DNA of 64,000 nt from Methanotrichaceae archaeon. Lineage in GTDB: Archaea; Halobacteriota; Methanosarcinia; Methanotrichales; Methanotrichaceae. The translations under genes were made by a program, and so were the position numbers. The notes beneath the pieces are model-generated. The model made no database searches, had not been told where the DNA came from, and saw only the letters and a list, made by a program, of their open reading frames with translations. Positions 38,595-61,519 of the stretch are shown here, in pieces. The DNA lies in NCBI GenBank assembly GCA_963748825.1, contig CAVVKN010000002.1, forward strand, positions 96,001 to 160,000, in the 5' to 3' direction. Positions within the stretch are counted from its first letter, which is position 1. Every line of letters begins with the position of its first letter.

Positions 38595-38600
38595 GCGGCC

Positions 38601-39323
38601 ATGCCTGAAATTTTGCGGGTGCATTTCCAGCTCAAAGAGACCATTGTCACCATTTTTGCCCGCGAGATCAGTCACATAGACGCGGCCCGAGAATCCATAA
38701 GAGAGCAGCGCGCCTATTTGGAGAATTTTATAAGAATAGATCCATTTTTTCAGATAACCTTAGAGCCTTACGATCTTGTCCAGGATAAAGCCCCGCGAAT
38801 CGTCAAGCAGATGATAGAGAAGAGCGCCGTCTTTGGCATAGGCCCCATGGCTGCAGTAGCTGGTGCCATTGCCGGCTTTGCCGTGCAGGCCATGATGGAA
38901 GAAGGAGCGACTTATGCCGTGGTGGATAACGGCGGGGATATCTGCATTTTAAATGATCAGCCCATGGTAGTAGGAATATATGCGGGAAGCTCGCCCATCC
39001 GGGACCTGGCCTTCCAGCTGGCGGCGCGAGGCAAGCCTTTGGGCATCTGCACCAGCTCGGGCAGCGTGGGGCCTTCCATCTCCTTTGGCTGTGCTGATGC
39101 TGCGGTGGTGATATCAGAGGATGTGGCTCTGGCTGATGCAGCGGCCACGGCTCTGGGAAATGCCGTTACGGCAGAGGGACCGCTGCAAGAGTGCTTCCAG
39201 GCGATTGATCGGCCGGGGATCGATGGCGCCCTGGTCATACGTGGCGAGAAAATGGCATTGTGGAAGGAGCTGCCACCCCTGCGCCGCGCTCATGTGGGTG
39301 CGGAGAGGATTACTAAGGAATAG
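38601..39323 (+). CDS. UPF0280 (ApbE-like) protein
   Basis: GPMAAVAGAIA, DNGGDI, GICTSSGSVGPSISFG and ADAAATALGN. Confidence 0.92.
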   Translation: MPEILRVHFQLKETIVTIFAREISHIDAARESIREQRAYLENFIRIDPFFQITLEPYDLVQDKAPRIVKQMIEKSAVFGIGPMAAVAGAIAGFAVQAMMEEGATYAVVDNGGDICILNDQPMVVGIYAGSSPIRDLAFQLAARGKPLGICTSSGSVGPSISFGCADAAVVISEDVALADAAATALGNAVTAEGPLQECFQAIDRPGIDGALVIRGEKMALWKELPPLRRAHVGAERITKE

Positions 39324-39391
39324 AGAATAGATATAATAATGCGCTGTGCATTCGAGATTTACTGTTAGAAGTTCGCAAGAAGGGCAAAAAA

Positions 39392-40576
39392 ATGATGAGA
39401 CAAAAGTTGAAACAAAAAAGGCCTTTTCACGTCATGATCATCCCCACCCTGGGCTGTCCCTCCAAATGCGCCTACTGCTGGAGTTCTGAGGTGGGCTCCC
39501 CTATTATGAGCATAGAGACTGTTAAAGATATCGTCGCCTGGCTCAAGGACTTTCGCAGCGATCCCGTTACCTTCACATTTCATGGGGGGGAGCCGCTTCT
39601 TGCAGGAGCCGATTTCTACAGGCAGGCTCTTCCCCTGCTTACCGGAGAGCTCCAGCATCTCGAGCCCAACTTTGCTCTGCAGACCAACCTCTGGAAGCTC
39701 ACCCCGGAGCTGGCCGATGTCCTGGCAGAGTACAATATCCCCATCGGCTCCAGCCTGGACGGGCCCCAGGAGCTCAACGACCTGCAAAGATCGGAGGGCT
39801 ACTACGAGAGGACCATGAGAGGATATGAACTGGCAAAAGAGCATGGTCTTTCGGTGCAGTTTATCTGCACTTTTACCTCTTATTCAGTGCAGTTCAAAGA
39901 AGATATCTTCAATTTCTTCCTGGAAAACGGTCTTACACTCAAACTGCATCCGGCACTCCCGTCTCTAAGAAGTGGCGAGCCGGACAAATGGGCGCTATCC
40001 CCGGAAAAGTATGGAGAGCTGCTGGTTTACCTGCTGGACAAGTACCTGGAAAACATGAGCAGGATAGAGGTCCGAAACATCAACGACTACAGTCGATGCG
40101 TCTTCACAGGCAGGGGCACTGTTTGCACATTTGTAGACTGCATGGAGAATACCTTTGCCGTGGGCCCGGACGGCAGCATCTATCCTTGCTATCGCTTCGT
40201 GGGCATGCCTGAGTACGTCATGGGCCATGTCCGGGATCGTCCCAGCCAAAAAGAGCTGGCAGAGTCGCCTGCGGGAGTACGCATGCGCGCCTTCAAGGAG
40301 TATGTGGACCGGGAATGCAAGGGCTGCAAGCACATCCGCTACTGCCGGGGAGGCTGTCCCTATAACGCCATCGCGCCTACCAACGGCGAGATTAAAGGCG
40401 TCGACCCCCATTGCATTGCCTATCAGAGGATCTTCGATGAGATCGCTGATCGTTTCAACCAGGAGATGATGGGATCCCTGGGCCTGGAGATGGGCTTATC
40501 TGCGGGGCAGGCCACGCCGGCCAAGGGCACCAGGCCGGCCATCATGCCGCTAGTCCGGAAGCTGGCATCGAATTGA
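39392..40576 (+). CDS. Radical SAM/SPASM enzyme, methanogen TIGR04083-like putative peptide/protein maturase
   Basis: FHVMIIPTLGCPSKCAYCW, FHGGEPLL, QTN and SLDG; SPASM Cys pattern C..GSIYPC..CKGC..CRGGC..C. Confidence 0.88.
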   Translation: MMRQKLKQKRPFHVMIIPTLGCPSKCAYCWSSEVGSPIMSIETVKDIVAWLKDFRSDPVTFTFHGGEPLLAGADFYRQALPLLTGELQHLEPNFALQTNLWKLTPELADVLAEYNIPIGSSLDGPQELNDLQRSEGYYERTMRGYELAKEHGLSVQFICTFTSYSVQFKEDIFNFFLENGLTLKLHPALPSLRSGEPDKWALSPEKYGELLVYLLDKYLENMSRIEVRNINDYSRCVFTGRGTVCTFVDCMENTFAVGPDGSIYPCYRFVGMPEYVMGHVRDRPSQKELAESPAGVRMRAFKEYVDRECKGCKHIRYCRGGCPYNAIAPTNGEIKGVDPHCIAYQRIFDEIADRFNQEMMGSLGLEMGLSAGQATPAKGTRPAIMPLVRKLASN

Positions 40577-40683
40577 GAGAGACGCAGAAGTATGCGTTTT
40601 ATTGTTTAACGGGTTTATCGGTTGGAAAAAAACAATGGGGACGTTCGGCATCCTTCACCGTGCCGAAAGATCCCACGAATACT

Positions 40684-43600
40684 TCAGCTCTTCCTTCTAA
40701 ATCCCGTCCAGATCATGAAGAGCACGACGAGCACCAGCCCTATTCCGAGCAATGGAGCCGCAGAGGAGCTGGGCTGGGAGGTCTTGGTGTTCACCGCCTC
40801 CATCACAAATCCTTTTACATCGCCCTCAGTTGAATCAGACGGCTCAGGTTTCTGGGCGGTTTTCGTTCCAAAACCGGAGGGTTTGGTCTGGTTGTAGCTT
40901 GATGCCTTTTCGCCAGCCGAGGAATGTTTGCTGGGCGAGGATTTGCTGGACTTGCTGCTGGCAGAGACGCTGCCGGAACTTTGGGAGGGATCGGGCTTTG
41001 GAGAAGGAAGGACTCCCTGCATGTACTCCTGCAAAGCCAGGTTGCCGCAGGTATGATGGCAGCAGGTGACACCATAATCCTGCACCGACTGCTCGTAGCG
41101 CTGTGCAAGCTCTTTTTTCATCTCCTCAGATGGATGCCACCGATCCTTTCTGGCTGTTTCCAGCAGCCTTCCGCTCAGCGCCTGAGAAGCCCAGGGATTG
41201 TTCTCATCAAAGAACTCCTTCAAGCCCATTTTGTATTTGTCATCGACATAAATCTCGTGCACCTCCGACCAGGTATTCTCACTGACCAGATCGGGAACCG
41301 TCGTCTCCCATCCCCACAGATATTCGGTGAACTTGTCCATCTCCCTGGCTCCTGAGTAGCCCTGTTCCATCATCCCTTCAATCCACTGGGGATTGTAGTA
41401 ACGCGTCCGCAGCTCCTTAGAGAAGAAGTCATGCAGGGAGGACACTTCGCTTCGCTCCGGGTCTCTCCCGTCGGTAACATACATTTCGGGGGTCTTTCCG
41501 GTTACAGTTCTCACCGCCATGCCAATGCCACCCAGATACTGGAAGACATCATCGTTGTCGATGAATCCGTAGAGGTTGGAGTTAGTGTGATGGACCGCAG
41601 CCTGCACCTCGGCCAGATTGGTCCGGAAGAGATCCTTTTGCAGACCGGAGAGATCCCTTCCCGAGGCCAATTTGCTGCTCCAGATACCGTCACCGTAGAT
41701 GTACGACATCCTATCTATGAAGAGGTTGCCTAGCTTTGTGTCGTTCTCCCAGGTATTGCTGGCGGAAATGGGGCTGTCTAGGTTGGGACCATAAGTTCCC
41801 GCCTCTTCCAGGAATATCCGGGAGGCGGAGAGGAGGGCAGCGTCCTCTTCGCTGAAGTTTCCACTGGCCATAAGTTCCTTGAAGATCTCCTCTGAATTCT
41901 CCCGCACATAGTTGGGATACTCTGCGCTCGTGTCGTTAGAAGCCAGTCGTATGGCTCGATCGAGGAGCTGCAGCTTCTCCGGGAAGAGATCTCTATGCAG
42001 TCCCGAGGGGACGACGACAACGTCAACCCTCGGCCTGCCAAGCTGGGAGAGGGGAATAAGCTGCACATCGGAGACACCGCCATAGGCATCGTAGACCGGC
42101 TTTGCTCCCACCAGGCTCAGGATCTCAGACTCCACCACCCCGTGGTCAGTCATGGCCCAGGCCCAGAGCACCATGGCCATCTTGCGAGGATAGGTGCCGT
42201 TGTGATCCTGCCGGTAGCTCTCAATGAGCTTTTCCGCCAGGTCAGATCCCACCTGCCAGGCGGCGCTCGTGGGAACGCGCCGCGGATCCACTGAGCGAAA
42301 ATTCCTGCCCGTGGGAAGGACCTGGGGGTCCCGGATGGGATCGTCAGCGGGAGACGGCTGTGTATAATTGGAATCCAGGGCATTGATGAGGCTTGGAACC
42401 TCCACAGAGCAGGCGGCAATGCTCTGTGCATACTGCAGGGAAAGGTTGAGCTGATCTGTCAGGTTCCTGGATACATTTCCAAAAATCTCTCTCTGAGCGG
42501 CTTCGGGTGATGTGCCGTTGATTATCACATCCATAAGCAGCTTCTCTGTGCAGTTTTCCAGCTCTTGCTCCTTGTCAAGCCTGGCTGGATTGGGATAGTC
42601 CTGGTAGGAGATCATGGGCGCGACCTCTCTGGACAGGCCATCTCCCAGCATCGACCTCACCAGGCCGGTCAGGGGCACCCCCTGAGGAGGCTGGCCGAAG
42701 ACGTGCAGGCCATAGGGCATGAACTGGTTTTTCAGATCGTAAAGGTACTGCTCCAGCTCGTCTGCGAATTGGTCAAAAGCAGATTCATTGGCCGAGATAT
42801 TGGCGGCGTCCACCTGCAGGTCTTCATCCAGGTGCATCTCCCGGCTGATGTTGATGATCTGCTTCATGTAGCCCTCCTTGACGCTGGCGTTTTGCACGCT
42901 CTTGTACTGGAAGACCATCTCAGCCAGGTTGGTCAGATTGCCGTAGAGCCCCGAAGCCACAATTGGCGGCGTCAAATGGGTGATCATCACCGCATCGCCC
43001 CGGCGCTTGGCCTGGGTGCCTTCGGCGATGTTGTCCACGATGTAAGGATAGACCACGGGCAGATCCTGAATAAGCAGAGCCGGCCAGGAGTCATTTATGG
43101 AGATTCCGCATTCCTTTCCCGGCAGCCACTCCTGGGTGCCGTGCTTACCCAGGTGGACTATGGCATCGGCGCCAAATCCCTTCTTGAGCCAGAGATAAAA
43201 GGCAATGTACTGATGATGGGGAGGTATGGACTTGCTATGATAAAGAATGGTGCTGTTCTCCAGCCATCCCCGGCTGGGCTGAGGCAGGAGGATGACATTT
43301 CCGAATGAGAGCTTGGGAATCACTATGAACTTTCCGCTCTGATTCTGATAGACCATGATCTCTCCCGGCGGCGGACCCCACATCTGGGTCACTTCTTTTT
43401 GTTTATCTTCCGGGAGGGATGCAAACCACTGCATGTAAATTTCGGCAGGTAGCAGAGTAGCATTGCCGGCTTTGACCATGGACTCCAGCTCGCCTGGGGC
43501 CCAGGAGCCCACATTGGTTCCCTGGTGAGCCAGAAGATCGACCAGAGCTTTTTCCTCCGGGACAGTCCCATTTACGCTGTAGCCGGCCTGAATCATTCCG

Positions 43601-46230
43601 TCAAGGATGTTTTGCAGACTGCGGGGGACATTAAGGTAGCAGCCCTCAATATTGTCCTTTCCCCCGCCGTGGTTGTAGTAGATGACGGCTACCTTCTTCT
43701 CCGCATGGCTGACATTGCGTAGCTTTGCCCAGGCTATTGCCCTATCTGCCAGCCAGTCCATTTGGCTCTCAATAGGCTGGTAGCCGGAGTCGGTTCTGCC
43801 TGACATGACTATCGGCTCTATAACACCGTCCATCTCCGGCAGGGCTATCTGGAAGTGGATCTCCATGGGGTCCATGCCCGTGCCGTTCTTCCATTCCTCG
43901 GGTGTTTGATAATAGAGCCTCATGCCTCTAAGCACCGGCACATTCAGCTCCTGCAGGTCGGCAATGCCCTGCTCGGGATCGCCATAGCTGAGCCGGAAGG
44001 ACTTGGTGAGAATGACGGCATCAACAATTGAGGTATTGTTTCGCATGAAGAAACTGTGCAAAGAGGAGGTACTCGAGAAGCCCAGGTCGATCACATTTGC
44101 TCCTTTCTTCTCCAAAGCGGAAATCAGGGCGGATCTGTCCGCATGGCCCAGATCCTGATAATAACTGATTATGCCAATGGTGGGCGCAGTGCTATTGAAA
44201 CTGTGTCCGGTTTTATTGCCATACCAGCTCAGGTAAGAGGTGACATTTTCGAAGAGGTCTGGTGAATCGGGATGATAGACGTATTCCTTGGGGGTGGGCA
44301 GCGGATCCTCCACTTTGAGGTTTAGGCCGCAGAAATTGACGGCCAGATAAGAGAAGAGACGCCTCATGTTCTCGACGCGGCCATAGTCCCAGTATTGCTG
44401 AATAGAAGGATGATCGGTGAGGTTTACATTTCCCAGGTGCTCATAACCGGCGGAATTGAGTACAATAACCGGCACTCCTTTCTGCTTTGCATCTTGCAGT
44501 GGGGCCGCCAGCTGGGTGGCGGCTTCGGCCCCCATCATCTCTATGAATATGAGTTCATATGAAGATAAATTGGAAGCATTCTGAAGTGAAATTAAAGTTA
44601 CATTAAGAACAGAATTTAAAGAGGCCTGCCTTATCTGGGGCTGGCTTCCTACCGTTAAAAAAAGGGCCTCGGGCCTCCTGAGGAGGACCCGGGCAGAGAT
44701 CTCCAGGCGAGGCGAATCCTCGGGCCTCGCCCGTCTGTCTCCAAAATAAAATAGCACTCGATCTTCATCTCTCAAATCAACCAGGTCAGGCCCGGATGCA
44801 GGCATGGCTTCCTCTGGGTAGTTTATCCAGAACCGCCAGGATCTGTCCCCATCGGCTCTGAAGCCCCCAAGAGACTCGACCTGCAGCCCGTAAAGATCGT
44901 AGAGAGAATCGTTCAAGCTTAGGTTCAATCCGCTTTGCTCACAGGCCTTGAAAAGCGCCCCCAGGGCGGTGCTCTGGTTGACCCGGTAGCTCTTGCCGCT
45001 ACTGGCCGTGAGGTTAAAGCTTTCCTCCTCCAGCAAGACCTCTCCGTCCCAGATCAGATCTTTTGGCCGGGAGCTGAAGGCGTACAGCCGACCATCATCA
45101 GCTCCCACGAAGAGCATGCCATCTGAGGCCGAGGCAGAGGACATGATAAAGGCACCCACAGGATAGGACCATACCACCGATCCATTGCCGGCATCCAGGG
45201 CATAAAAGGCTCCGTCGCCGCAGCTTGTCCCGAAATACACTTTGTTGTCTAAAACCAATGGAGAGGACTTGACAGGACCATTTACCTCCGTCCTCCAGAT
45301 CAGTGAGCCATTTCGAGCATCAAAGCAGCTCAGATGGCCCTTTGGCTTATCATCTGATCCCACATAAACCCGGCCAAAACTGGCCGCAGGAGAGGAGATG
45401 CTGCCATTGATCTCTGCCGTCCAGAGCTGCTTTCCCGATGCGGCGTCCAGGGCCAGGATCGCCTCCTTCGTAACCAGGAAGACCTCTGTCTCCCCCAGCG
45501 TGGGCGTGGCCGTGATCTGAGAAACGACTGCCGTCTTCCACAACGTCTCTTTGGAAACGGAATCGACGCAGTACAGGGCAGGATCGCCTCCCGGGAAGTA
45601 GATCTTCTGGTCCGAGGCGGCAGCCGAGACGTAGTTGCTTACCTGGCCGGTGGACAGATTCCACAGCTCCTTGCCATCTAGGCTCAGGGCATGCAGCGCC
45701 CCGTCCGAGTAGCTCATGACATAGACCACGCCATCCTGTATCAGGGGCGAGGAGGCCACACCCCACCATTTAGGATTTTGTTCAAGGGTCCTATTCCAGA
45801 CCGTCTCGCCCGTATCGGCGTTTAGACAGTAAAGATCGCCAGTGAGAGAGCCCACAAAGATCTTGTCTCCCTCCAGGGCAGGGGTTGATGCACCACCCTT
45901 GCCACCCAGCGGGTTGATCCACAGCCTCTTGCCGTCAGCCCGGTTCAGGCAGGCCAGGCCAAGCTCACCTTTGAAGGTCATGTCCGGCCAGTTGGAGACG
46001 AATACTCTCTCCCCAGAGATTGCGGCTGCACCGCCTACATAGCCGTGGCCGGTCAGACTTGTGCTCCAGAGCAGCTCTGCCTCGTCCGGCCCTGTACCGC
46101 TCAGATTGCCAGTTCTTTGATTGTCGCCCTGAAATGTCACGAAGTTTGCACTGGCCACAGAGACAAGGGCAAGCAAAAAGATGGTCATGAGGAGGGGCCA
46201 TCTTGACCCGACGTCAATTGCGAATCTCAT
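40684..46230 (-). CDS. Secreted, C-terminally anchored CobN/HmuS-like chelatase fused to a PQQ-type beta-propeller and a DUF4430 domain
   Basis: Signal peptide; about 8 PQQ-like repeats (aa ~30-385); DUF4430-like segment (~395-510); CobN motifs LPEMDG, YYNHGGGK, PPHHQY, HLGKHGTQEWLPGK, QAKRRG, PTGRNF, RPRVDVV and NPQWIEGM; CCHHTC; S/K/P linker; TM helix + RRKS. Confidence 0.92.
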   Translation of the reverse strand: MRFAIDVGSRWPLLMTIFLLALVSVASANFVTFQGDNQRTGNLSGTGPDEAELLWSTSLTGHGYVGGAAAISGERVFVSNWPDMTFKGELGLACLNRADGKRLWINPLGGKGGASTPALEGDKIFVGSLTGDLYCLNADTGETVWNRTLEQNPKWWGVASSPLIQDGVVYVMSYSDGALHALSLDGKELWNLSTGQVSNYVSAAASDQKIYFPGGDPALYCVDSVSKETLWKTAVVSQITATPTLGETEVFLVTKEAILALDAASGKQLWTAEINGSISSPAASFGRVYVGSDDKPKGHLSCFDARNGSLIWRTEVNGPVKSSPLVLDNKVYFGTSCGDGAFYALDAGNGSVVWSYPVGAFIMSSASASDGMLFVGADDGRLYAFSSRPKDLIWDGEVLLEEESFNLTASSGKSYRVNQSTALGALFKACEQSGLNLSLNDSLYDLYGLQVESLGGFRADGDRSWRFWINYPEEAMPASGPDLVDLRDEDRVLFYFGDRRARPEDSPRLEISARVLLRRPEALFLTVGSQPQIRQASLNSVLNVTLISLQNASNLSSYELIFIEMMGAEAATQLAAPLQDAKQKGVPVIVLNSAGYEHLGNVNLTDHPSIQQYWDYGRVENMRRLFSYLAVNFCGLNLKVEDPLPTPKEYVYHPDSPDLFENVTSYLSWYGNKTGHSFNSTAPTIGIISYYQDLGHADRSALISALEKKGANVIDLGFSSTSSLHSFFMRNNTSIVDAVILTKSFRLSYGDPEQGIADLQELNVPVLRGMRLYYQTPEEWKNGTGMDPMEIHFQIALPEMDGVIEPIVMSGRTDSGYQPIESQMDWLADRAIAWAKLRNVSHAEKKVAVIYYNHGGGKDNIEGCYLNVPRSLQNILDGMIQAGYSVNGTVPEEKALVDLLAHQGTNVGSWAPGELESMVKAGNATLLPAEIYMQWFASLPEDKQKEVTQMWGPPPGEIMVYQNQSGKFIVIPKLSFGNVILLPQPSRGWLENSTILYHSKSIPPHHQYIAFYLWLKKGFGADAIVHLGKHGTQEWLPGKECGISINDSWPALLIQDLPVVYPYIVDNIAEGTQAKRRGDAVMITHLTPPIVASGLYGNLTNLAEMVFQYKSVQNASVKEGYMKQIINISREMHLDEDLQVDAANISANESAFDQFADELEQYLYDLKNQFMPYGLHVFGQPPQGVPLTGLVRSMLGDGLSREVAPMISYQDYPNPARLDKEQELENCTEKLLMDVIINGTSPEAAQREIFGNVSRNLTDQLNLSLQYAQSIAACSVEVPSLINALDSNYTQPSPADDPIRDPQVLPTGRNFRSVDPRRVPTSAAWQVGSDLAEKLIESYRQDHNGTYPRKMAMVLWAWAMTDHGVVESEILSLVGAKPVYDAYGGVSDVQLIPLSQLGRPRVDVVVVPSGLHRDLFPEKLQLLDRAIRLASNDTSAEYPNYVRENSEEIFKELMASGNFSEEDAALLSASRIFLEEAGTYGPNLDSPISASNTWENDTKLGNLFIDRMSYIYGDGIWSSKLASGRDLSGLQKDLFRTNLAEVQAAVHHTNSNLYGFIDNDDVFQYLGGIGMAVRTVTGKTPEMYVTDGRDPERSEVSSLHDFFSKELRTRYYNPQWIEGMMEQGYSGAREMDKFTEYLWGWETTVPDLVSENTWSEVHEIYVDDKYKMGLKEFFDENNPWASQALSGRLLETARKDRWHPSEEMKKELAQRYEQSVQDYGVTCCHHTCGNLALQEYMQGVLPSPKPDPSQSSGSVSASSKSSKSSPSKHSSAGEKASSYNQTKPSGFGTKTAQKPEPSDSTEGDVKGFVMEAVNTKTSQPSSSAAPLLGIGLVLVVLFMIWTGFRRKS

Positions 46231-46541
46231 GGCGCATCACCTCCCTGGCCAAATGCATACATTGTGCCGCTGCCTATGGTAAAGACCATGCCGCCAGCCA
46301 CTGCGAGAGCCGAGCCGCCGACAGGATAGCTCCAGACAGCCTTGCATGTGCTGGCGTTGAGGGCGCGAAGTGCTGTATTTGTATCAAAGCAGTAGGCGGC
46401 CTTGGACGGTTGGGCTGCCCCGAGCAGGTCCGGCTCTTTCTCCAAACCATCTATTTTAGCGCCCCCTCGGCTCCGAACCTTGAAGTCAAATAACGCTTCA
46501 TTCATATCATTCATTTTTAGGGATTTTTTCTCACCTGCCAT
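46227..46541 (-). pseudogene. Truncated PQQ-repeat gene remnant coupled to the CobN-like gene
   Basis: The C-terminal half is one propeller blade (LRALNAST..VWSYPVGG...GMVFT..GTMYAF). GAGGAGG RBS; the stop overlaps the next ATG. Confidence 0.55.
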
Positions 46542-46905
46542 TTTATGTCCTCCTCAGCGATCCACTTCAACTTTAAGCAGGAGATGAAGTGGAAGCGATA
46601 TCCTCGTGTTTTGCCCACCCACATCCTGACTAAAATGGGCCCGTGGAATTCTGATCCACTTATTTTTAGTTAATACAAATATAGTTTACTTAAATGTTCT
46701 GGTGCAAAAGATCCATGCAGAGGACGCATGAAGATTCAACTGCATCTTAAAAGTCAATAGTAACCTGGGGCTTGTCAGGGAAATAGCGAAGAAACCAAAA
46801 AAAACTTCAAGAATCCAGGCAAATTCAGGAGCTAGAGGAAAGGTCAATTCGGATCTTAAGAAAAAATAAGGGGGATTGATTAGGATACTTTCGGCAAAGC
46901 ATACT

Positions 46906-47892
46906 TCACGGCTTTAGTTTGTAATCTTCGGTAGGAAACTGCGCTGCAGTTGCATTCCAGGTAGGCCTGTAGCTCTCCAAAGCAGTCTCCCTGCAGGTGC
47001 AGTCGAAGATGCCCTTCTGGCCGGCATACTGCTTATCGAAATTCCAGGAGGGAAGATCGAAGAAGCCGCCACTGCAACAGGGTAGCCAGTCCTCGCCCCA
47101 TGTGGCTTTGTACTTGGTAAGATCCAATTTCATGGTCTTTTGCACCTGGAAGTCGCCTATGTAGTCATTGTCGATCTCGATTACGGGATTCTTCCAGCCC
47201 AGCAGATTCTTTACTTTGGGTGTTACCTTACATCCGCCTGATTTCATGGGCTGAGCCAGTAGCTCACCGATATGGAGCGTACCCTGGGTAACATCATCGT
47301 CGATCCTCATGTTGAGAAGGCCCTTTCCATCCTCCGTGGCAGTGGCTCCGGTACAGTTCATTTCCACAGCAATGTCGCCCTTGAGGGCTCGTGCATACTC
47401 CACCTGCCGGTGCATTGATGCTGATTCCTGGTAGCTCTTGGCCACAGTCTTATCCTTAAGAAGGGAATTGTAGCCCACAGGATGAGAGGCATACCAGCCG
47501 GTTCCATACGCAAATGCTGTAGGTGACTGGATATTGTCATACTGCCTGGTGTAGGAGATGACGCTGCTAGCGCCTTTACATTTCTTCTGCCACTGTCCAT
47601 CATAGTCCAGGTAATAGTAAGAACTTATGTGTGTCGATTTCTGTTCGGAATTCAATATATCAGCTAAGTCTATGCTGCCGCTGCCATGGAAATACTCCAG
47701 CAGGGAAAGGTTGTTAGTGTTGATTCTCTTATATTCCATCACATATCCCTGACCAGTAACATCATCAGTCATCTCATGCTTGTGCAGTATAGCCTCCTGG
47801 CCCGGATTAAAGTCAAAATCCCCTGCCCAAGACAGCCCTGATAACACTGGCATTAACAGCAATGCCAGACAAATCCACAAAAAGTCCCTCAA
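46906..47892 (-). CDS. Secreted hypothetical protein with WLPCC and DCTC motifs
   Basis: TTG start 3 nt after the binding-protein gene; signal peptide; 328 aa. Confidence 0.8.
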   Translation of the reverse strand: MRDFLWICLALLLMPVLSGLSWAGDFDFNPGQEAILHKHEMTDDVTGQGYVMEYKRINTNNLSLLEYFHGSGSIDLADILNSEQKSTHISSYYYLDYDGQWQKKCKGASSVISYTRQYDNIQSPTAFAYGTGWYASHPVGYNSLLKDKTVAKSYQESASMHRQVEYARALKGDIAVEMNCTGATATEDGKGLLNMRIDDDVTQGTLHIGELLAQPMKSGGCKVTPKVKNLLGWKNPVIEIDNDYIGDFQVQKTMKLDLTKYKATWGEDWLPCCSGGFFDLPSWNFDKQYAGQKGIFDCTCRETALESYRPTWNATAAQFPTEDYKLKP

Positions 47893-47895
47893 GAA

Positions 47896-48999
47896 TTAAT
47901 CCTCCTGATAAACGAATATCCTATCCGCAGGAAAATCCTGCCCCAAACGCTCAAAATACTCTTTATAGATGCTTTCTGGATTCAGATCAGCTTCAGGATG
48001 CAAAATTTTGGCCAGGTAAGCCAGCCCCACCACGCTCTCCATGCCATAAAACATGTCTGAGTACACAACGAAAACCTGTCCGCTCTTGGCGGCAGAGATG
48101 CGCACCCCCCCCGGTCTGTCCAGGATCTCACTTATTGTCTTTTCAAGTTCCAGAGTATCCTGGCTTGGGCCCTTCTTCCAGCCGAGAGAACCCTCCGAGG
48201 ACAATGTTCTGACTATCACCTCTGGATCTTCAGACAACACAAACTCCCAGCTAACATGGGCCGATTTCTCCAGCTCACCTGCGATGTTTCGTCCCCTCGC
48301 AGTCCGGGCGAGATCATTGAGTCCCGATCCATCACCAAAGGTGATCAGATCCCCAATACCCTTCTTGGGGCTTCTCTCCAGGTAAACACTGGTAAGGGAA
48401 AGACCAGACACCGCCTTTTCAATCGCTTCTATCTTTTCATCTCGCCATTTCAGGTAGTTGGAAGCCTCTTCTTCCCTGACCAGGATGCTGCCCAGCGCGG
48501 TCATCTCCCGGCTGAGGTTCTCAGGCTGATAGAAGTCCAGACCTGCATTTATGCTGCCGAAGGGTGCAACCTTTTTCTCCACCTCTGCGGCTCCGTAGTC
48601 CTTTCCTACGCCGCTAAAGCCTATTACCAGCAGATCGGAAGGCTCGCTTTGCCCTGCTGTGGCCATCTCTCCTATCAGCTCGTAGTCGATCTCGCCACCC
48701 ATCTGGCTGGTTCCAACCACCTGTTTGCCCAATAGGTCGGGGAGATGGCTGCTGCGCCCCAGGATCTCCTCAGTAATGCCTACGATCTTGTCCCCGGCGC
48801 CAAGAGTGACCACCGCCTCTGCAGCATCGGAATTGAGCACGATGATTCTCTCTATGGGCATAGGGATAGAGACCGTCCTTCCCGCGCTATCGACTATGGT
48901 TTTGGGGTATGCATCATCATCCAGGGCTGCAGCACCATAAGCCGGAAAATTAAGAAACAGCAAAATAGCTGCCAGCACCTTAATCGATCTATCTTTCAT
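47896..48999 (-). CDS. ABC substrate-binding protein, BtuF/siderophore/heme class III type
   Basis: Signal peptide; YPKTIVDSAGRTV..PIERIIVL, VSWEFVLSEDPEVIV, AAKSGQVF and YLAKILHPE. Confidence 0.88.
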   Translation of the reverse strand: MKDRSIKVLAAILLFLNFPAYGAAALDDDAYPKTIVDSAGRTVSIPMPIERIIVLNSDAAEAVVTLGAGDKIVGITEEILGRSSHLPDLLGKQVVGTSQMGGEIDYELIGEMATAGQSEPSDLLVIGFSGVGKDYGAAEVEKKVAPFGSINAGLDFYQPENLSREMTALGSILVREEEASNYLKWRDEKIEAIEKAVSGLSLTSVYLERSPKKGIGDLITFGDGSGLNDLARTARGRNIAGELEKSAHVSWEFVLSEDPEVIVRTLSSEGSLGWKKGPSQDTLELEKTISEILDRPGGVRISAAKSGQVFVVYSDMFYGMESVVGLAYLAKILHPEADLNPESIYKEYFERLGQDFPADRIFVYQED

Positions 49000-49335
49000 C
49001 CTTTCCTCCTGCACCTACAGTCCATAATCAAATTATTTTGTTTTAATTCAACTAAGCTTTATTTTGCAGGGGATGAAGTTAGTAAATAAAAGTGTTACGG
49101 TCCTCCGAGTATTCAGAAATAATTAACTAACAATAAAATTATTATTTTCTTTTTTATTAAGATTCACATACATGGACTCGAAGAGGCAAAAAACCATTAT
49201 TTATTCGCTACTGTTCATATAAGGTCCTTATTTTTGATCTAGAGGATGAAAGCAAATACAATTGTTTTTATTCCTCGTAGCTTGCGTAAGAGTTAAATCC
49301 AATAAAGTTGCCTTCAAATCAGTCAAGTTTAGTAG

Positions 49336-50028
49336 GTGTCTTTCTTGGATCTGACGTGGCTTTCTATCTCTGGAGTGCTGATCGGAATTCTGATCTTCGC
49401 CCTTAAGGTTAGTTTGGGTTGCGGTCTGGCCAGCCTGAACCGCCGTGAAGTGCTTTATATCGCCGCAGGATATTTGATAATCTCTCTTTTTATGGGCATG
49501 GCCATAGAGCTGCTGCCGGAAAACGCACTGAATGCAACTTTGAACGCCGGGGTGGCAATGCACCTTGCTGTTGCCCTGATGTTGGTAGCTTTAGGCGTCA
49601 TGACAGCCAGAAAATGGAACAGCCATCATCATGACATATCCAGGAAGACCTTCTGGGTCTTATCCATGCCCTGTCCGGCCTGCCTGGCAGCCAGCTTCAT
49701 CTCCTGCAGCTTTCTGGCCGGACTTGTGGATATCGATCCATGGAAGATCGGCGCCCTGGTGGGCATTCTCTTCTTCTTTTGCATAGCTATCTTCTCCACG
49801 GCACTGGGACGGATCAAAGGGACGCCTGCATCTCTTGGAAATGCCATGATCTTTATCGGCATCTTCTACATACTCTCCATTCTCCTCATCCCCGCATACC
49901 TTAATTCTCAGAAGATCTCTTTCCTCTCCCAGAGCCCTCCACTAGCCGAAATAGGCCTATCCTATCTGATGATACTCTCTTTAGTGGCTTTGGGGTTCTT
50001 AGGCAGAAGATGGGGGATCTCCTTTTGA
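49336..50028 (+). CDS. DUF2162 membrane protein (HmuT-like)
   Basis: About 7 TM helices; IFALKVSLG, PCPAC motif and LGNAMIFIGIFY. Confidence 0.82.
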   Translation: MSFLDLTWLSISGVLIGILIFALKVSLGCGLASLNRREVLYIAAGYLIISLFMGMAIELLPENALNATLNAGVAMHLAVALMLVALGVMTARKWNSHHHDISRKTFWVLSMPCPACLAASFISCSFLAGLVDIDPWKIGALVGILFFFCIAIFSTALGRIKGTPASLGNAMIFIGIFYILSILLIPAYLNSQKISFLSQSPPLAEIGLSYLMILSLVALGFLGRRWGISF

Positions 50029-50663
50029 GCCTTTATGAGGCCAGTGTAGAGCTGCTCTATATCTTCTCTACCGCATTCCTTTACCCAGTCATAGTGAGCC
50101 TCTTGCTCCTTTTTGCCTGGTCGTTAGCCCTGCTGGGATCCCTGATTAACGAGTACACCTCCCGGCACAGGGCTTTGTCAGAGTTGGAAGAACTCAGCCT
50201 CAAAGCGGCCCATCTGAATAAAGAAGGCAGGACTAGAGAGGCGTCAGAGGCCCTTAAGTGTTACAAATGCCCCCGGCAGCTCTCCCTGGCCCTTCTGCAG
50301 ATTGGCCGATCTTTGGAGACGGGGCTCTTTAATCTCAAGTTCGAGAAGATCCTGCAAGATATTGAGCTATCCATGGCAAGAGCTCTTGAGCCCGTGAGGA
50401 TTGGAGTTAAAGTTGGGCCGATTTTAGGGCTGATGGGAACTCTGATTCCCATGGGCCCTGCCCTCCTAGGCCTCTCCCAGGGAGACATCAAATCCCTGGC
50501 CGACAACCTGGTCATTGCTTTTGCTACCACAGTCATTGGGCTGGTGGTGGGTGGTGTCTGCTACGCGACGATGGTGATCAGAACCAGGTGGTACCGGCAA
50601 GACTTGAGCGACCTGGAGTATGCAGTGGACCTTATGAGGGGCAGAATGGATGAGACGACGTAG
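50010..50663 (+). CDS. MotA/TolQ/ExbB proton channel family protein (HmuU-like)
   Basis: GPILGLMGTLIPMGPAL..L..GD...LA.NL.IAFATTVIGL and RWYRQDL. Confidence 0.92.
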   Translation: MGDLLLSLYEASVELLYIFSTAFLYPVIVSLLLLFAWSLALLGSLINEYTSRHRALSELEELSLKAAHLNKEGRTREASEALKCYKCPRQLSLALLQIGRSLETGLFNLKFEKILQDIELSMARALEPVRIGVKVGPILGLMGTLIPMGPALLGLSQGDIKSLADNLVIAFATTVIGLVVGGVCYATMVIRTRWYRQDLSDLEYAVDLMRGRMDETT

Positions 50664-50997
50664 GCTAGGACTTTTGGGCGACCCGGAGGATGACGATCCC
50701 ATGAGCGGGGTGGCCAATCTCTTTGACACGGCCATGGTCTTCGCTGTAGCCCTCCTCCTGGCGCTTGTCGTTTCATATAATGTCCCGGAGCTGCTCCAGC
50801 CTGAGAGCAATGTGACCATCGTCAAAAACCCGGGCGATCCGAATATGCAGATCATAATCAAAGACATGGATCAGATCCAGGTTCTTGACATGACCGAAAA
50901 GATTGCCGGCGGTCAGGGCACCAGGATGGGGACAGCCTACCAACTTAAGAGCGGCCAGGTGGTGTATGTCCCAGAAAATGCCACGGATATTCGGTGA
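50650..50997 (+). CDS. DUF2149 protein (ExbD/HmuV-like)
   Basis: DPMSGVANLFDTAMVFA single TM with Asp, VKNPG and GTAYQLKSGQVVYVPE. Confidence 0.9.
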   Translation: MRRRRLGLLGDPEDDDPMSGVANLFDTAMVFAVALLLALVVSYNVPELLQPESNVTIVKNPGDPNMQIIIKDMDQIQVLDMTEKIAGGQGTRMGTAYQLKSGQVVYVPENATDIR

Positions 50998-51069
50998 GGC
51001 GGGAGAAGATGAGGCTCATGCCCGAGTTCACACGTCAAGTATAAGCTCTCAGCGATTTATTATTTATCC

Positions 51070-51924
51070 ATGTTGCAGGACCTACGACTGACCATTGTGG
51101 TTGAGAACTCTGCCTCGCTTGGCGACACTCCTGTCTGGGCCCAGCATGGGCTATCCATCTTTTTGGAGACGGAGCTGGGCTCAGAGAGCATGAAGCTGCT
51201 CATGGATACAGGCGCCTCCTCGGAGGTGATGCTGCATAATGCCGATGCTTTGCATATCGACCTTCACCATCTCGATCTGATCTGCCTCAGCCACGGCCAT
51301 TATGATCACACGGGTGGACTGATGGGCATCCTCCAGCGCCTGAACAGCAAGATTTGCATCCTGGCCCATCCCGATATCTTCGCGCCCAAGCTGAAAGAGC
51401 GGCCCATTCTCAAGTTCATCGGCCCGCCCTTCACACGGGCAGAGGCGGAGGCTGCGGGGGCAATCATGCTCGAAGCCCGCGGACCGGTAGCAATAGCACC
51501 GGAGGTCATGACCACAGGTGAGGTGCCACGCATCGAGCCCTTCGAGAAGGTGGAGGACTTCTGGACGATCAAGGATGGCCAATACTGCCAAGACAAGATC
51601 CCGGACGACCAGGCCCTGGCCATCAACATGGAAGGCAAAGGCTTAGTTGTCATCACCGGCTGTGCTCACGCCGGAATCATCAATACTATCAAGCATGCTC
51701 AGAAGATCACGGGTGTGGAGGAGCTTTATGCCGTGATAGGAGGCTTTCATCTCATGGGAGCGGATGAAAAGCGCATAGAAGCGACAGCAAAGGCGCTGCA
51801 ACAGCTTGATCCAGCCATCGTCCGGCCTGGTCACTGCACAGGACAAAAGGCCGTCTGCCGGCTGCAAGAGGCTTTGGGCGAGAGATGCTGGCCCCTGACT
51901 GTGGGAGACTCGATACGGATCTAA
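51070..51924 (+). CDS. MBL-fold hydrolase (MJ0301-like dihydropterin-RFA-P synthase family)
   Basis: QHGLS, DTG, SHGHYDHTGG, DDQAL, GCAHAGI, GGFHL and HCTG. Confidence 0.85.
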   Translation: MLQDLRLTIVVENSASLGDTPVWAQHGLSIFLETELGSESMKLLMDTGASSEVMLHNADALHIDLHHLDLICLSHGHYDHTGGLMGILQRLNSKICILAHPDIFAPKLKERPILKFIGPPFTRAEAEAAGAIMLEARGPVAIAPEVMTTGEVPRIEPFEKVEDFWTIKDGQYCQDKIPDDQALAINMEGKGLVVITGCAHAGIINTIKHAQKITGVEELYAVIGGFHLMGADEKRIEATAKALQQLDPAIVRPGHCTGQKAVCRLQEALGERCWPLTVGDSIRI

Positions 51925-51946
51925 AAATAGATGAAGGTGTGAAAAA

Positions 51947-52895
51947 ATGATAGCTTTCGGGCCCGTGCCCTCCAGGAGGCTGGGACGCAGCCTGGGCATT
52001 AACAACATACCTGCCAAAATATGCACTTATTCCTGCGCCTACTGCCAGGTGGGCAGGACCATGCAAATGGAGGTAAAGCGCCGTTCCTACTACTCGCCCC
52101 AAGAGATCTGGCAAGAAGTGAAGGCGAAAGTGGACAGTTCCAAAAGCCAGGGTTTGGCCATCGATTACCTTACCTTCGTGCCGGACGGAGAGCCCACCTT
52201 AGACATAAATCTGGGCCAAGAGATCGATATGCTAAGATCCCTGGGCATCAAGATTGCAGTGATAAGCAACGCCTCACTGATCTGGGATGAAAACGTGAGA
52301 GAGGAACTCTCAAAGGCGGATTGGGTATCGGTCAAGGTGGATGCACTGGACGAGCATATCTGGAGGCGCATGGACAGACCTCATCGAGCGCTAGGGCATG
52401 AGGCAATTTTGCAGGGCATCCTCGACTTCTCAAAGGAATTTTAAAGGCATGCTTGTCACAGAGAGCATGCTGCTGTCAGGCATAAATGATGATGAGATCA
52501 CTCTGCTGGGAATGGCAGAATTCCTGGAAAAGGTTGATCCAGCCATTGCCTATATCTCAGTGCCCACCCGGCCGCCCGCAGAAAAATGGGCTGCGCTGCC
52601 CTCAGAGAAGAGCATTAACCGCGCCTACCAGATATTCAGCGCAAAGGTGAAGCAAGTGGAGCTTCTCGTGGGATATGAGGGAGATAGCTTTGATTTTACG
52701 GGCAATGTGGAGCGCGACCTGCTGGCAATTGCCGCAGTTCACCCCATGAGAGAAGAAGCGGTCAGAAAATTTGTGCAGCAGGCCCAGGAGAGTTGGGGAG
52801 TTGTGGAAAAACTGATCGATCAGGGAGAGCTCGTCAAGACCGAATATCGGGGCCACAGTTTCTATCTGAGGAGGCCGAATATTTCCACAGAATAG
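51947..52895 (+). pseudogene. Radical SAM protein split by a +1 frameshift at GAA TTT TAA
   Basis: The 5' ORF (FGPVPSRRLGRSLG, CTYSCAYC, GEPTL) stops at 52444. The C-terminal half (ESMLLSGIND, PTRPPAE, VHPMRE) continues in the +1 frame; removing one T gives EF-KGMLVTE. Confidence 0.85.
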
Positions 52896-52974
52896 ATTAT
52901 CGACCACAGTTATTACTGTTAATTCGATAATCTGATATATTCAGAACACCAATATAACAATTAGGTGTTGCAAT

Positions 52975-54132
52975 ATGAAGCCAATTCTTGTCGCCTTATT
53001 GTTAGGTTTGCTGCTCTTTTCCTCTGGATGCATTCAGCCTGAAAAGGCCCCTGTCGTGGAAGAGAAAGTAGCCACAGAAGGGTGGAATGCTGATGGAATC
53101 GTGGGGAATAGCGAATACTCTCGCAGCATGGTCTTGCATGCTCCGGCCAGGCAGGGATATACCGGAGGCGAGATGGAGATCTCCTGGAAGAACGATCAGG
53201 AATATCTCTACATGGGACTGAACGGCAGCACCGAAGGCTGGCTGGCTATAGGCTTTGAGCCTTTGGAGTGGATGAAGAACGCCGACATAATACTAGCCTC
53301 GGTGCAAGGAGGCAAAGCGACAGTACTGGATGAGTATTGCACGGGCAACTACGGTCCGCACATCGAGGATACCATGCTGGGAGGCACAAACGATATCACA
53401 GAATTTGGCGGCAGCAAAGGAGCCGGTCGCACTGTCATCGAGCTGAAGAGAAAGCTGGATACGGGAGACAAGTTCGACAAGGCTTTCTCACCCGGCCAGG
53501 CGATCTCCATAATCTGGGCCTTGTCCAATAACCCAGAGATCAGCTTCAAACACAATGTAGCCTACGGCGAGGGCATCATGACCTTGACTAGTGGACAGGC
53601 GATGACTTCTGCGGCCACAGCTACAGCAGCAACCTTAACCTCACGCGAGAAAGAAGGAATGCTCTTCATCTGGGAGGAAGAAAAGGCTGCCCGCGACCTG
53701 TATATGTCCCTTTATGACAAAAACAACCTCACCATCTTCATGAATCTGGTGAGATCGGAGCAAAGCCATATGGACCAGGCCAAAGCCATCATAGACAAAT
53801 ACGGGCTGACTATTCCAGGAAATGATGAGCAGGGAGTATTTCCGAATCAGACTTTGCAGAAGATTCATGACGACCTCCTAGCAGAAGGATTGCGATCTGA
53901 TCAGGATGCTCTGAAGGTGGCTGCCGCCTTCGAGGAGATTAGCATAATGGACCTGGAGAAGGAGATATCAGCAACTAAGACGGAGGATATCAGGGTTGTC
54001 TACCAGGGACTGTTGGCCGGCTCCAGAAAGCACCTGCGCTCATACGTCGCCGACTTGCAGGGCCGTGGAATACAATACGCACCCAAGTACCTGAGCAAGA
54101 GCGAATTTGAAGAGACGATAAAGGCAAACTAA
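52975..54132 (+). CDS. Lipoprotein: DOMON domain fused to DUF2202 ferritin-like domain
   Basis: Lipobox LLFSSGC; DOMON GWLAIGF...MKNAD..IELKRKLDTGDKFD..FKH; DUF2202 EEEKAARDLY, SEQSHM, EEISIMDL and GSRKHLRSY. Confidence 0.85.
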   Translation: MKPILVALLLGLLLFSSGCIQPEKAPVVEEKVATEGWNADGIVGNSEYSRSMVLHAPARQGYTGGEMEISWKNDQEYLYMGLNGSTEGWLAIGFEPLEWMKNADIILASVQGGKATVLDEYCTGNYGPHIEDTMLGGTNDITEFGGSKGAGRTVIELKRKLDTGDKFDKAFSPGQAISIIWALSNNPEISFKHNVAYGEGIMTLTSGQAMTSAATATAATLTSREKEGMLFIWEEEKAARDLYMSLYDKNNLTIFMNLVRSEQSHMDQAKAIIDKYGLTIPGNDEQGVFPNQTLQKIHDDLLAEGLRSDQDALKVAAAFEEISIMDLEKEISATKTEDIRVVYQGLLAGSRKHLRSYVADLQGRGIQYAPKYLSKSEFEETIKAN

Positions 54133-54148
54133 GCCGCAATCAGAAATC

Positions 54149-54179
54149 ATGGGGAGCCGCCCGGCTCTCCATTTCTTCT
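54149..54179 (+). terminator. Hairpin after the DOMON-DUF2202 gene
   Basis: ATGGGGAGCCG/CGGCTCTCCAT inverted repeat followed by TTCTTCT. Confidence 0.5.
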
Positions 54180-54269
54180 CCACAAAACCCTTTTAGCCCT
54201 TTCAACGCATGTGTCTCTGCACTCAATGGATCCGTGATTTTTTAGTATTCCTGGCATTCCTGGGTCAGA

Positions 54270-54860: not shown

Positions 54861-54956
54861 TTAATCAAAACCCTCAATCTCTTATATTCCCCAGGGCATA
54901 AAAATTGGACCTTCATATGAGCTATACAGAGCACTTACATGATTGACATAGGCAAT

Positions 54957-61518: not shown

Positions 61519-61519
61519 A

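Follow-up and report, generated by a model that had tools for sequence, protein, structure and literature searches.

A putative archaeal module of an exported CobN-like protein, an ExbB-like motor and a DUF2162 membrane protein, and its possible role in cobalt acquisition

Between positions 40684 and 50997 of a 64,000-nucleotide stretch of the genome of a Methanotrichaceae archaeon (the window), a gene for a large CobN-like protein, predicted to be exported and anchored in the membrane, lies divergently from genes for three membrane proteins, one of them a relative of MotA, TolQ and ExbB. This arrangement raises the question of what a member of the class I chelatase family could be doing at the cell surface, and what its neighbours could contribute. 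From its gene content the locus appears to represent, in its archaeal version, a module with four components: an exported, C-terminally anchored class I chelatase-family protein, an ExbB-like protein, a DUF2149 protein and a DUF2162 protein. We give a probability of roughly 0.4 to the reading in which this module would act as an ion-gradient-driven surface (de)chelatase for cobalt acquisition, with DUF2162 as the path of the ion.

The gene for the exported protein (1848 amino acids; open reading frame (ORF) and Pfam evidence) occupies 40684..46230 and is one of four genes on the minus strand. The plus strand carries, divergently, the genes for a polytopic membrane protein of the DUF2162 family (49336..50028; Pfam, 186.7 bits), a MotA/TolQ/ExbB-family channel protein with three transmembrane (TM) segments (50010..50663; Pfam MotA_ExbB, 34.9 bits at a cut-off of 22.9) and a DUF2149 protein like the single-pass partners ExbD and TolR (50650..50997; Pfam, 116.5 bits), which overlap one another. 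All seven ORFs of the divergent layout given in a preliminary description of this DNA were recovered in place from the ORF list and Pfam.

The arrangement is widespread. Of the 201 Halobacteriota genomes sampled, 64 had a DUF2149 match, among them all six of the window's own family and 24 of the 25 of family f2, and neighbourhoods of 10 kb to either side were taken around the 60 best-E matches out of 88, from 52 genomes, the 28 weakest being excluded. Within this distance a CobN-like gene (phmmer E<1e-50) was present at 44 of these 60 loci, spread over 41 of the 52 genomes, which upholds the conserved linkage to DUF2162, ExbB and DUF2149 that the preliminary description had proposed. The linkage was complete in families f2 (24/24), f3 (4/4), f5 (2/2) and f15 (1/1) and looser in f11 (4/9), f4 (3/5), f1 (3/6) and f18 (0/1), several of the loci without a CobN-like neighbour being short contigs. 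When all ORFs of the 61 neighbourhoods (the 60 loci and the window) were clustered, the widely shared families were the ExbB-like (58), DUF2149 (57), DUF2162 (52) and CobN-like (46) proteins, the next family reaching 11, and these four families form a conserved unit. A DUF2149 scan of named genome contigs, which overlaps the first sample and is not independent of it, gave 42 loci of at least 15 kb, all 42 with DUF2162 and 31 with a CobN-like gene, the taxa with the latter including Methanosarcina, Methanococcoides, Methanohalophilus, Methanoculleus, ANME-1 (anaerobic methanotrophic archaea), Ca. Syntrophoarchaeum and Ca. Methanovorans.

Export of the CobN-like protein, as the preliminary description had supposed, is predicted from an N-terminal hydrophobic segment (residues 5-23), a C-terminal TM segment (residues 1822-1840) and 42 N-x-S/T sequons (2.27 per 100 residues, compared with 5, or 0.40 per 100 residues, in a cytoplasmic paralog), features that fit an archaeal surface glycoprotein held by its C-terminus. 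Of 48 CobN-like ORFs adjacent to the trio of DUF2162, ExbB-like and DUF2149 genes, 45 were full-length and 3 were fragments, and both hydrophobic ends were present in 45 of 45 full-length proteins, each fragment having the expected half. The domains of the window protein follow in the order of signal-like segment, pyrroloquinoline quinone (PQQ) type propeller, a middle domain of about 120 residues, CobN domain, Cys/His tail and TM anchor, with Pfam scores of 167.8 bits for PQQ_2 and 1149.4 bits for CobN-Mg_chel, the latter over residues 612-1704 (41119..44397, minus strand).

The propeller (about residues 40-400; 45031..46113, minus strand; Pfam PQQ_2 and Beta-prop_ACSF4) matched designed and natural PQQ-like propellers and BamB among PDB sequences, and it is confined to Methanothrix-type orthologs; other lineages bear CarboxypepD_reg/SdrD_B/PKD or DUF11 domains, or no recognisable ones, in their N-terminal extensions, which are typical surface-protein modules. 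The middle domain (residues 393-515; 44686..45054, minus strand) resembles DUF4430 and the beta domain of transcobalamin. In the window protein DUF4430 (PF14478) scored 15.6 bits (E 0.023), below the cut-off of 23.8 that is passed at the same position in the orthologs P0070 (34.3 bits) and P0077 (32.9 bits), and a homologous stretch occurs in 79 of 124 stored homologs. An AF2 model of the domain (pLDDT 95.8) retrieved transcobalamin at all of the ranks 1-10 in Foldseek, with E-values of 7e-3 to 6e-2, none at or below 0.001, and probabilities of 0.97-1.00; the isolated transcobalamin beta domains 5no0 and 5np4 gave TMt values of 0.57 and 0.56. In the part of PMC4350170 available, DUF4430 is described as the C-terminal domain of transcobalamins.

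After the CobN domain comes a tail peculiar to the exported forms (40687..41118, minus strand; delimited by tail comparison), with a CCHHTC motif (residues 1723-1728), a Ser-rich linker, the sequence VKGFVM (residues 1805-1810), the TM anchor and a basic end. CCHHTC is exact in 45 of the 48 archaeal exported proteins and has the variants CCDHTC and CGHTTC in the bacterial relatives from Trichlorobacter and Runella considered below; in the tail comparison it was seen in none of the cytoplasmic CobN/BchH rows and in neither Prevotella nor Bacteroides HmuS. The pattern V-x-G-x-x-M stands about 30 residues ahead of the anchor in all 48 archaeal exported proteins, and NCBIfam gave no match at E<=0.01 to a PGF-CTERM-type sorting signal in the anchor.

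The place of this protein in its family was examined in a FastTree tree of 62 rows and a quick IQ-TREE tree (LG+G4) of 34 rows, the latter with 16 of the 48 archaeal exported proteins as representatives; CobN of Ralstonia, Sinorhizobium and Haloferax and BchH of Thiodictyon served as biosynthetic comparators. An exported clade, made up of the archaeal exported proteins, four bacterial module proteins other than HmuS and the HmuS rows, was recovered with support of 100 (FastTree) and 99 (IQ-TREE), separate from biosynthetic CobN, from three archaeal cytoplasmic paralog groups and from BchH. The preliminary description had likened the CobN-like protein to HmuS, and an approximately unbiased (AU) test did reject a union of the archaeal exported proteins with biosynthetic CobN (delta lnL 219, p-AU 5.8e-6). 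Inside the clade, IQ-TREE put the three HmuS rows in a group of their own (100) and the archaeal proteins in another (100), next to a Trichlorobacter/Runella group in the free tree (99), while a pairing of the archaeal proteins with HmuS was not rejected (p-AU 0.224), so that the order within the clade stays open in trees with long branches, uneven composition and a single-matrix model. The window protein appears to belong to the exported HmuS/CobN-like clade and yet to lie outside the HmuS family. By phmmer against the PDB, its CobN domain scored 538.6 bits with HmuS (9d26), 489.9 with CobN (7c6o) and 467.4 with ChlH (4zhj), and all nine CobN/BchH models of NCBIfam stayed below their cut-offs (best 1239.1 versus 1619).

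These results bear on the plainest alternative, an ordinary biosynthetic cobaltochelatase subunit encoded by chance near unrelated membrane genes. Public annotation of orthologs as 'cobaltochelatase subunit CobN' and the CobN-type metal site described below agree with it, but the predicted export and sequon load, the missed NCBIfam cut-offs, the rejected union with CobN and the conserved linkage all argue otherwise and leave it barely credible. Also against it, Pfam found no CobS/CobT, ChlI/ChlD or cob/cbi gene among the 57 ORFs of the window, as the preliminary description had stated; the only CbiA-family matches there belong to two Mrp/NBP35-like P-loop proteins, and ChlI/ChlD-like matches occur elsewhere in the genome. 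The protein shares with CobNST and ChlHID the six-domain CobN fold family and a site of His (in HxGxHG), Glu and Asp-x-Asp-Asp...Gln. Those systems are cytoplasmic, driven by AAA+/VWA (von Willebrand factor A) subunits and metal-inserting, and their large subunit ends after domain VI, whereas the window protein is predicted to be exported, has no AAA+ partners nearby, continues into a Cys/His tail with an anchor and is phylogenetically separate.

The residues of the metal site indicate which member of the family the protein may resemble in function. As described in available passages of PMC12583661, HmuS removes iron from heme and has two motifs, HFG(T/A)HG with His538, found across the superfamily, and LSLDHxxEFMGG with His1209 and Glu1212, strict in HmuS. 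The site of the window protein consists of H1026, H1030, E1070, D1558, D1560, D1561 and Q1564. The first motif is kept as HLGKHG (residues 1026-1031), and the column of E1070 holds Glu in 47 of the 48 archaeal exported rows and in 18 of 18 others. The second reads DNDDVFQYLGG in place of the SLDHVYEFMGG of all three HmuS rows, and ungapped phmmer mapping equates D1560 with HmuS D1208 and CobN D1100, D1561 with HmuS H1209 and CobN D1101, and Q1564 with HmuS E1212 and CobN Q1104. A preprint (10.64898/2026.07.21.739949), as far as its text was available, reports two Co2+ in a CobN site of H554, E593 and D1100, and H1030, E1070 and D1560 align with the residues so named. The window enzyme would therefore seem to combine a CobN-type metal site with an HmuS-like exported scaffold.

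This substitution weighs heavily on a second alternative, in which the protein would be an HmuS-like dechelatase that strips iron from heme at the surface, the iron being taken up through FeoB. Membership of the exported clade with partners of the HmuU/HmuV type speaks for it, as do the best PDB score being that of HmuS, the sequence S-N-x-(Y/W)-G that precedes the second motif in both the window protein and HmuS, the p-AU of 0.224 for a sister relation with HmuS, and the presence of FeoB and a DtxR-type repressor 10-12 kb away. Yet the strict His1209/Glu1212 pair of HmuS is Asp/Gln here, a second-place His occurs in only 5 of the 48 archaeal exported proteins, the window's not among them, the hemophore HmuY and the TonB-dependent receptor HmuR are missing, HmuT is not DUF2162, and the non-HmuS bacterial relatives and one archaeal locus stand in cobalt or nickel contexts. 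Among the three metal sources offered in the preliminary description (cobalt, iron or nickel), iron from heme is accordingly the least favoured, and we regard this alternative as very improbable.

The second motif varies among the 48 archaeal exported proteins: 36 are of the Asp-Asp type, 2 Asp-Glu and 1 Asp-Gly, 5 have an HmuS-like His in second place (at L020, L037, L038, L053 and in one copy at L057), and 4 have lost both motifs. Given this variety, the paralogs held by genomes with several modules may serve different substrates. The four proteins without the motifs (L025, L043, L044 and L049) read EHPMVAAYFGG, keep CCHHTC, the anchor and the trio, and may be non-catalytic binders. Two kinds of cytoplasmic paralog were also seen. 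In the genome of the window, about 84 kb beyond the module's gene, a protein of 1260 residues with no signal segment (L002:1015-4797; G000:C2:223564-227346) is encoded in an operon with BtuF/BtuC/BtuD-like ATP-binding cassette (ABC) genes; its DLDHYYEFFGG has the His/Glu pattern of HmuS and BchH, not that of CobN, and it is a candidate importer-tied cytoplasmic porphyrin (de)chelatase. A group of further archaeal paralogs at L083, L088 (genome G101), L079 (genome G200) and L080 (genome G024) has G-C-C-C-Y-F-G at the place of CobN D-S-D-D and HmuS L-D-H, and we know of no function for a metal site of three cysteines on a scaffold of the class I chelatases.

The two proteins shared by nearly all loci look like an ion-driven stator. 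The MotA/ExbB protein has TM segments at residues 28-46, 135-153 and 167-185, and DUF2149 has a basic N-terminus, a TM helix that starts with N-L-F-D and a short conserved outer domain; N23, L24 and F25 are invariant in an alignment of 15 sequences that includes bacteria (A2) and at least 90% conserved in one of 21 archaeal sequences (A5), with D26 nearly invariant at the start of the helix in both. D26 would correspond to Asp25 of ExbD, and N-L-F-D looks like the ExbD/TolR pattern. The likeness to ExbB-ExbD, TolQ-TolR and MotA-MotB lies in a three-TM MotA_ExbB protein with a single-pass partner bearing an Asp in its TM helix, encoded by overlapping genes; the window pair differs from these in that neither TonB nor TolA nor a flagellar component accompanies it and the cell has no outer membrane to which it could supply energy, and its DUF2149 has a short outer domain of its own, Pfam reporting DUF2149 only. 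A complex prediction for two DUF2149 chains (A5) with the CobN-like tail (A4, residues 85-149) scored 0.01 at a mark of 0.32 and says nothing either way. MotA/ExbB and DUF2149 pairs were also observed without DUF2162 or a CobN-like gene (L055:6277-10103, L071:9774-13580 and L074:9777-13642), beside genes for S-layer proteins of 871-873 residues with PF07752 (about 660 bits), CARDB and a C-terminal anchor.

The third partner, DUF2162, is encoded by a single gene in the genome; control searches of the Methanosarcina acetivorans genome matched both DUF2162 and DUF2149. Its alignments (A1, A3) show invariant G28-C29, P112-C113-P114-x-C116 and C124, with H76 and D100 also conserved throughout, and its AF2 model (pLDDT 83.5) has eight helices. 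The preliminary description had held the families of the module to be the same four as those of the hmu operon of Bacteroidota. For HmuS, HmuU and HmuV the correspondence stands, since Prevotella HmuV belongs to the DUF2149 family (118.2 bits) and annotation tables list HmuU (MotA/ExbB) and HmuV (DUF2149) as hmu partners (PMC11681262, PMC10434189). For HmuT it does not: Prevotella HmuT, the one HmuT sequence compared, had no Pfam match to DUF2162, a BLASTP E-value of 0.013 and an hhalign probability of 1.2%, and it is without the invariant PCPxC/GCG cysteines, although size, polytopic nature and position agree and leave room for a very distant kinship. The membrane protein of the Runella module was likewise not matched to DUF2162 by hhalign (probability 0.5%). 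The membrane protein of the module thus varies (DUF2162, HmuT or a NicO/DsbD_2-like protein) and the ExbB, DUF2149 and CobN-like parts are constant.

The hmu operon is the closest known parallel. It too encodes an extracytoplasmic CobN-family protein that has membrane segments at both termini, and next to it come a polytopic protein of about 230 residues, a MotA/ExbB protein and DUF2149. HmuS shares with the window protein the exported clade, HxGxHG with its following Glu, and V/G-x-x-M before the anchor. Identity is only 27-29%, however, and HmuS has neither propeller nor DUF4430 domain. What appears to be new here in comparison with HmuS is the CobN-type site, the Cys/His tail, absent from Prevotella and Bacteroides HmuS, the use of DUF2162 instead of HmuT, and a set with no outer-membrane parts: Pfam found no HmuY or HmuR family among the 57 ORFs. 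According to available passages of PMC12583661, many homologs of unclear role exist in archaea, where complete hmu operons are missing, and a 2026 paper (PMC13227078), in the text available, calls HmuT, HmuU and HmuV uncharacterised. Our full-text searches, which left most subscription journals uncovered, found no description of the archaeal module, in keeping with its presentation as uncharacterised in the preliminary description, and a term search of the accessible part of a review of iron and sulfur acquisition in methanogens gave no mention of CobN or ExbB (PMC8351635).

The metal that the module may handle is suggested by the surroundings of its relatives. Annotated bacterial comparators were found by tblastn against plasmid records. 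In Trichlorobacter lovleyi (pGLOV01/pSZ77, the Glov_3671 region) the order is TonB-dependent receptor, DUF2162, MotA/ExbB, DUF2149, CobN-like, ExbB, ExbD, TonB and TonB-dependent receptor, next to cobT and bzaF and directly downstream of two tandem cobalamin riboswitches (107.3 and 65.5 bits). This DUF2162 is a true member (214.6 bits), the exported CobN-like protein bears the motifs DNDD..Q and CCDHTC, and at 37.2% identity its CobN domain was the closest to the window's among the named comparators measured. It differs from the window module in being bacterial, in its two TonB-dependent receptors, its separate ExbB-ExbD-TonB set and its riboswitches, and Pfam gave no propeller or DUF4430 domain there. 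No riboswitch or other Rfam family reached the gathering score in 38000-53000 of the window, which gave one sub-threshold match resembling a small nucleolar RNA. According to the accessible text of PMC3403914, T. lovleyi has no CobS/CobT and the 'exact biochemical role' of the CobN-like protein is 'unknown'.

In Cupriavidus the exported CobN-like gene is followed by cobW, cobN and a VWA gene, and in Diaphorobacter it is accompanied by TonB-dependent receptors and MotA. In Prevotella nigrescens, Bacteroides finegoldii and Aureibacter the genes hmuY and hmuR, whose order varies, precede hmuS, a hypothetical gene, MotA/ExbB and DUF2149. TonB-dependent receptors accompany the module at 7 of the 8 loci examined in bacterial relatives (Trichlorobacter, Prevotella, B. 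finegoldii, Aureibacter, Runella and Diaphorobacter), the exception being Cupriavidus. On Runella slithyformis pRUNSL01 (L093:1104-9138) hypF and hypCDE, of a hydrogenase maturation cluster, flank a TonB-dependent receptor, MotA/ExbB, DUF2149 and the CobN-like gene, and the place of DUF2162 is taken by a weak NicO/DsbD_2-like protein; this arrangement suggests a nickel-supplying version. At an archaeal locus (L067:9780-15278) the trio adjoins, on the same strand, a DsbD_2-like protein, an ABC ATPase, CbiQ, a 97-residue ORF and CbiM (194.3 bits), a cobalt/nickel energy-coupling factor (ECF) importer set of the CbiMNQO type, and a CobN-like gene is absent within 10 kb. The contexts of the bacterial relatives of Asp-Asp type and of L067 are those of cobalt or nickel, not heme. 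Beside these, a separate PQQ-like propeller gene of Haloferax mediterranei (pHME322, L014:2272-3501) adjoins, within the cob cluster, the VWA gene and biosynthetic cobN, so the association of propeller and CobN also exists as separate genes in haloarchaea.

In a third alternative whole corrinoids would be captured and imported, with the CobN-like protein as a high-affinity receptor and with DUF2162 and the motor either moving the intact ring through the membrane or releasing it to a binding protein, in both cases with the metal left in place. Cobalamin riboswitches, such as those upstream of the Trichlorobacter module, also control B12 importers; the DUF4430 domain is transcobalamin-beta-like and a class III binding protein adjoins the module in the window; cobalamin can be carried by small membrane proteins with cysteines, BtuM being one; and BtuG, a B12-capture protein of Bacteroides, is a propeller. 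Work on P. gingivalis moreover suggests that HmuS may pass heme to HmuTUV for transport (PMC13227078, in the portion available). A mere receptor would have no need of the His/Glu/Asp metal site that nearly all members keep, however, the binding protein is missing from 58 of the 60 other loci, the DUF4430 domain and propeller are lineage-specific, and the relatives adjoin ion-type systems (CbiMNQO, NicO/DsbD_2-like, cobW). We therefore hold whole-corrinoid import to be unlikely, if the strongest of the alternatives.

In a further alternative no tetrapyrrole would be involved: in sulfidic habitats, where metal ions are scarce, Co2+ or Ni2+, free or weakly complexed, would be bound by the cleft of the CobN-like protein and by the CCHHTC cluster, the motor forcing their release to DUF2162. 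The binding of Co2+ in the CobN cleft (preprint 10.64898/2026.07.21.739949, available text), the restriction of the Cys/His cluster to exported forms, the invariant cysteines of DUF2162 and the ion transporters and metallochaperones beside relatives are in favour. Against this stand the TonB-dependent receptors, importers of chelates, at those 7 bacterial loci, the only characterised member of the clade, which acts on a tetrapyrrole, and the DUF4430 domain, which points to a corrinoid ligand; capture of free ions is in our judgement quite improbable.

The reading we prefer, surface (de)chelation powered by an ion gradient, would work in four steps. The enzyme would capture a cobalt- (possibly nickel-) bearing chelate of corrinoid type through its N-terminal domains, here the propeller and the transcobalamin-beta-like domain. 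ExbB and DUF2149 would then use the ion gradient for the mechanical work done by the AAA+ subunits of CobST and ChlID in the cytoplasmic relatives, acting through the membrane-tethered tail after domain VI, a candidate force-receiving partner. The CobN-type His/Glu/Asp site would next release the metal, and the ion, handed on through the CCHHTC cluster, would reach DUF2162 for import. Archaea have no outer membrane or TonB; for this reason, and because Trichlorobacter has a separate ExbBD-TonB set, the motor probably belongs with the CobN-like enzyme and not with TonB. An ion gradient in place of ATP is suggested because the AAA+ motor of CobSTN grips domain VI of CobN (preprint 10.64898/2026.07.21.739949, available text), and in the exported protein domain VI continues into the tethered tail. 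Cobalt is suggested because the relatives stand with cobalamin riboswitches, CbiMNQO, cobW-cobN and hyp genes, and because HmuS, a member of the clade, removes a tetrapyrrole metal; with the DUF4430 domain, these contexts lend some support to cobalt from corrinoids as the preliminary description had listed it. A wider version, for which the odds are lower and which we put forward tentatively, holds that in methanogens and in methane- and alkane-oxidising archaea an ion-gradient motor replaced the AAA+ ATPases, pulling the chelatase tail, and that cobalt is stripped at the surface from corrinoids or other tetrapyrroles and imported through DUF2162, some paralogs handling nickel or iron.

Several points weigh against this proposal. 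To our knowledge, removal of cobalt from a corrin has no enzymatic precedent and is chemically demanding; the organism probably makes its own corrinoids, and salvage of the whole ring would seem cheaper; and a cobalamin riboswitch would suit the uptake of corrinoids no less than that of cobalt. Linkage holds in only 3 of 6 genomes of the window's own family, and in G101, a complete Methanotrichaceae genome, some 286 kb separate the exported gene and the trio. The trio is retained beside 4 of 48 exported proteins without both catalytic motifs, the capture domains vary by lineage so that the DUF4430 clue is not general, and the ExbB/DUF2149 pairs beside S-layer genes suggest that the motor may work for anchored surface proteins of other kinds too. 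For DUF2162 as an ion path, Foldseek against the PDB gave no fold relative at E<=0.001 (best E 0.14), the best structural overlap being with a ZIP transporter (TMq 0.50; Z 6.6 in the wide (VIA) structure search, in which the best Z of 7.3 is noise for helical proteins), and the A1 profile had a chance match only among PDB sequences.

If the proposal were true, the consequences would reach beyond this archaeon. Methanothrix, Methanosarcina, Methanoculleus and the ANME and alkane-oxidising archaea need much cobalt, nickel and iron where sulfide keeps free metal scarce, and how they acquire cobalt and nickel other than through ECF and ABC importers is poorly known. The module offers a testable route for trace metals or corrinoids in the organisms that chiefly produce and consume methane, and a first function for archaeal 'CobN' paralogs; it would also represent the first class I enzyme of chelatase type to run on an ion gradient and not on ATP. 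Archaea being without an outer membrane, HmuU and HmuV would by the same reasoning drive HmuS and not the HmuR receptor, a cross-domain argument on the roles of HmuT, HmuU and HmuV in Bacteroidota of the gut and mouth that have hmu systems.

The remaining minus-strand genes, which the preliminary description had counted as parts of the module, did not cluster with the conserved unit in the 61 neighbourhoods and are local extras. The binding protein (47896..49014; Peripla_BP_2, 62.1 bits) belongs to class III of the substrate-binding proteins and has homologs within 10 kb at 2 of the 60 other loci (L038 and L053); it had been called BtuF-like, a loose term, since the best PDB match is an iron/siderophore-binding protein (6b2x, 55.7 bits), and neither a permease nor an ATPase gene lies beside it. 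The orphan protein with eight cysteines (P0003; 46906..47892; 328 residues, signal-like segment at residues 4-22) has no Pfam or NCBIfam family and no usable Atlas match, and like the PQQ remnant it recurs in none of the 60 other neighbourhoods. That remnant, correctly recognised as such, is a 104-residue ORF (46227..46541) that overlaps the start of the CobN-like gene by 4 nucleotides and has no Pfam family; it corresponds to residues 781-820 only of an 831-residue PQQ protein encoded ahead of the CobN-like gene at L061, in a relative (tblastn, 67.5% identity, E 1e-11; phmmer 3e-13). The AT-rich divergent intergenic region (49015..49335), where the promoters would lie, contains weak repeats only and no convincing palindrome, no operator search having been made.

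FeoB and ZIP, named in the preliminary description as possible importers of the released ion, were tied to the module by no analysis and lie downstream in a separate metal-homeostasis cluster (52975-63403). This cluster encodes, by Pfam on the window ORFs, ZIP (59922-60680), a DtxR-type repressor (61009-61518) and FeoB (61520-63403; FeoA was not searched for), together with an exported DOMON and DUF2202 protein, the two Mrp/NBP35-like Fe-S P-loop NTPases, a second DUF2202 protein and a cation diffusion facilitator (CDF) transporter fused to a Nitro_FeMo-Co domain. DUF2149 genes with 62-68% identity to that of the window turned up on a 6-kb contig with a CobN-like gene in a Nitrosotalea metagenome-assembled genome (MAG; L154) and on a 2.6-kb contig in a MAG labelled 'Proteobacteria bacterium' (L155), both of which look like mis-binned methanogen contigs and not true occurrences. 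Between the module and the metal cluster (51947-52895), two overlapping ORFs of 165 residues in different frames, the first with a radical S-adenosylmethionine (SAM) domain and the second with no family, may represent a frameshifted or split radical SAM gene.

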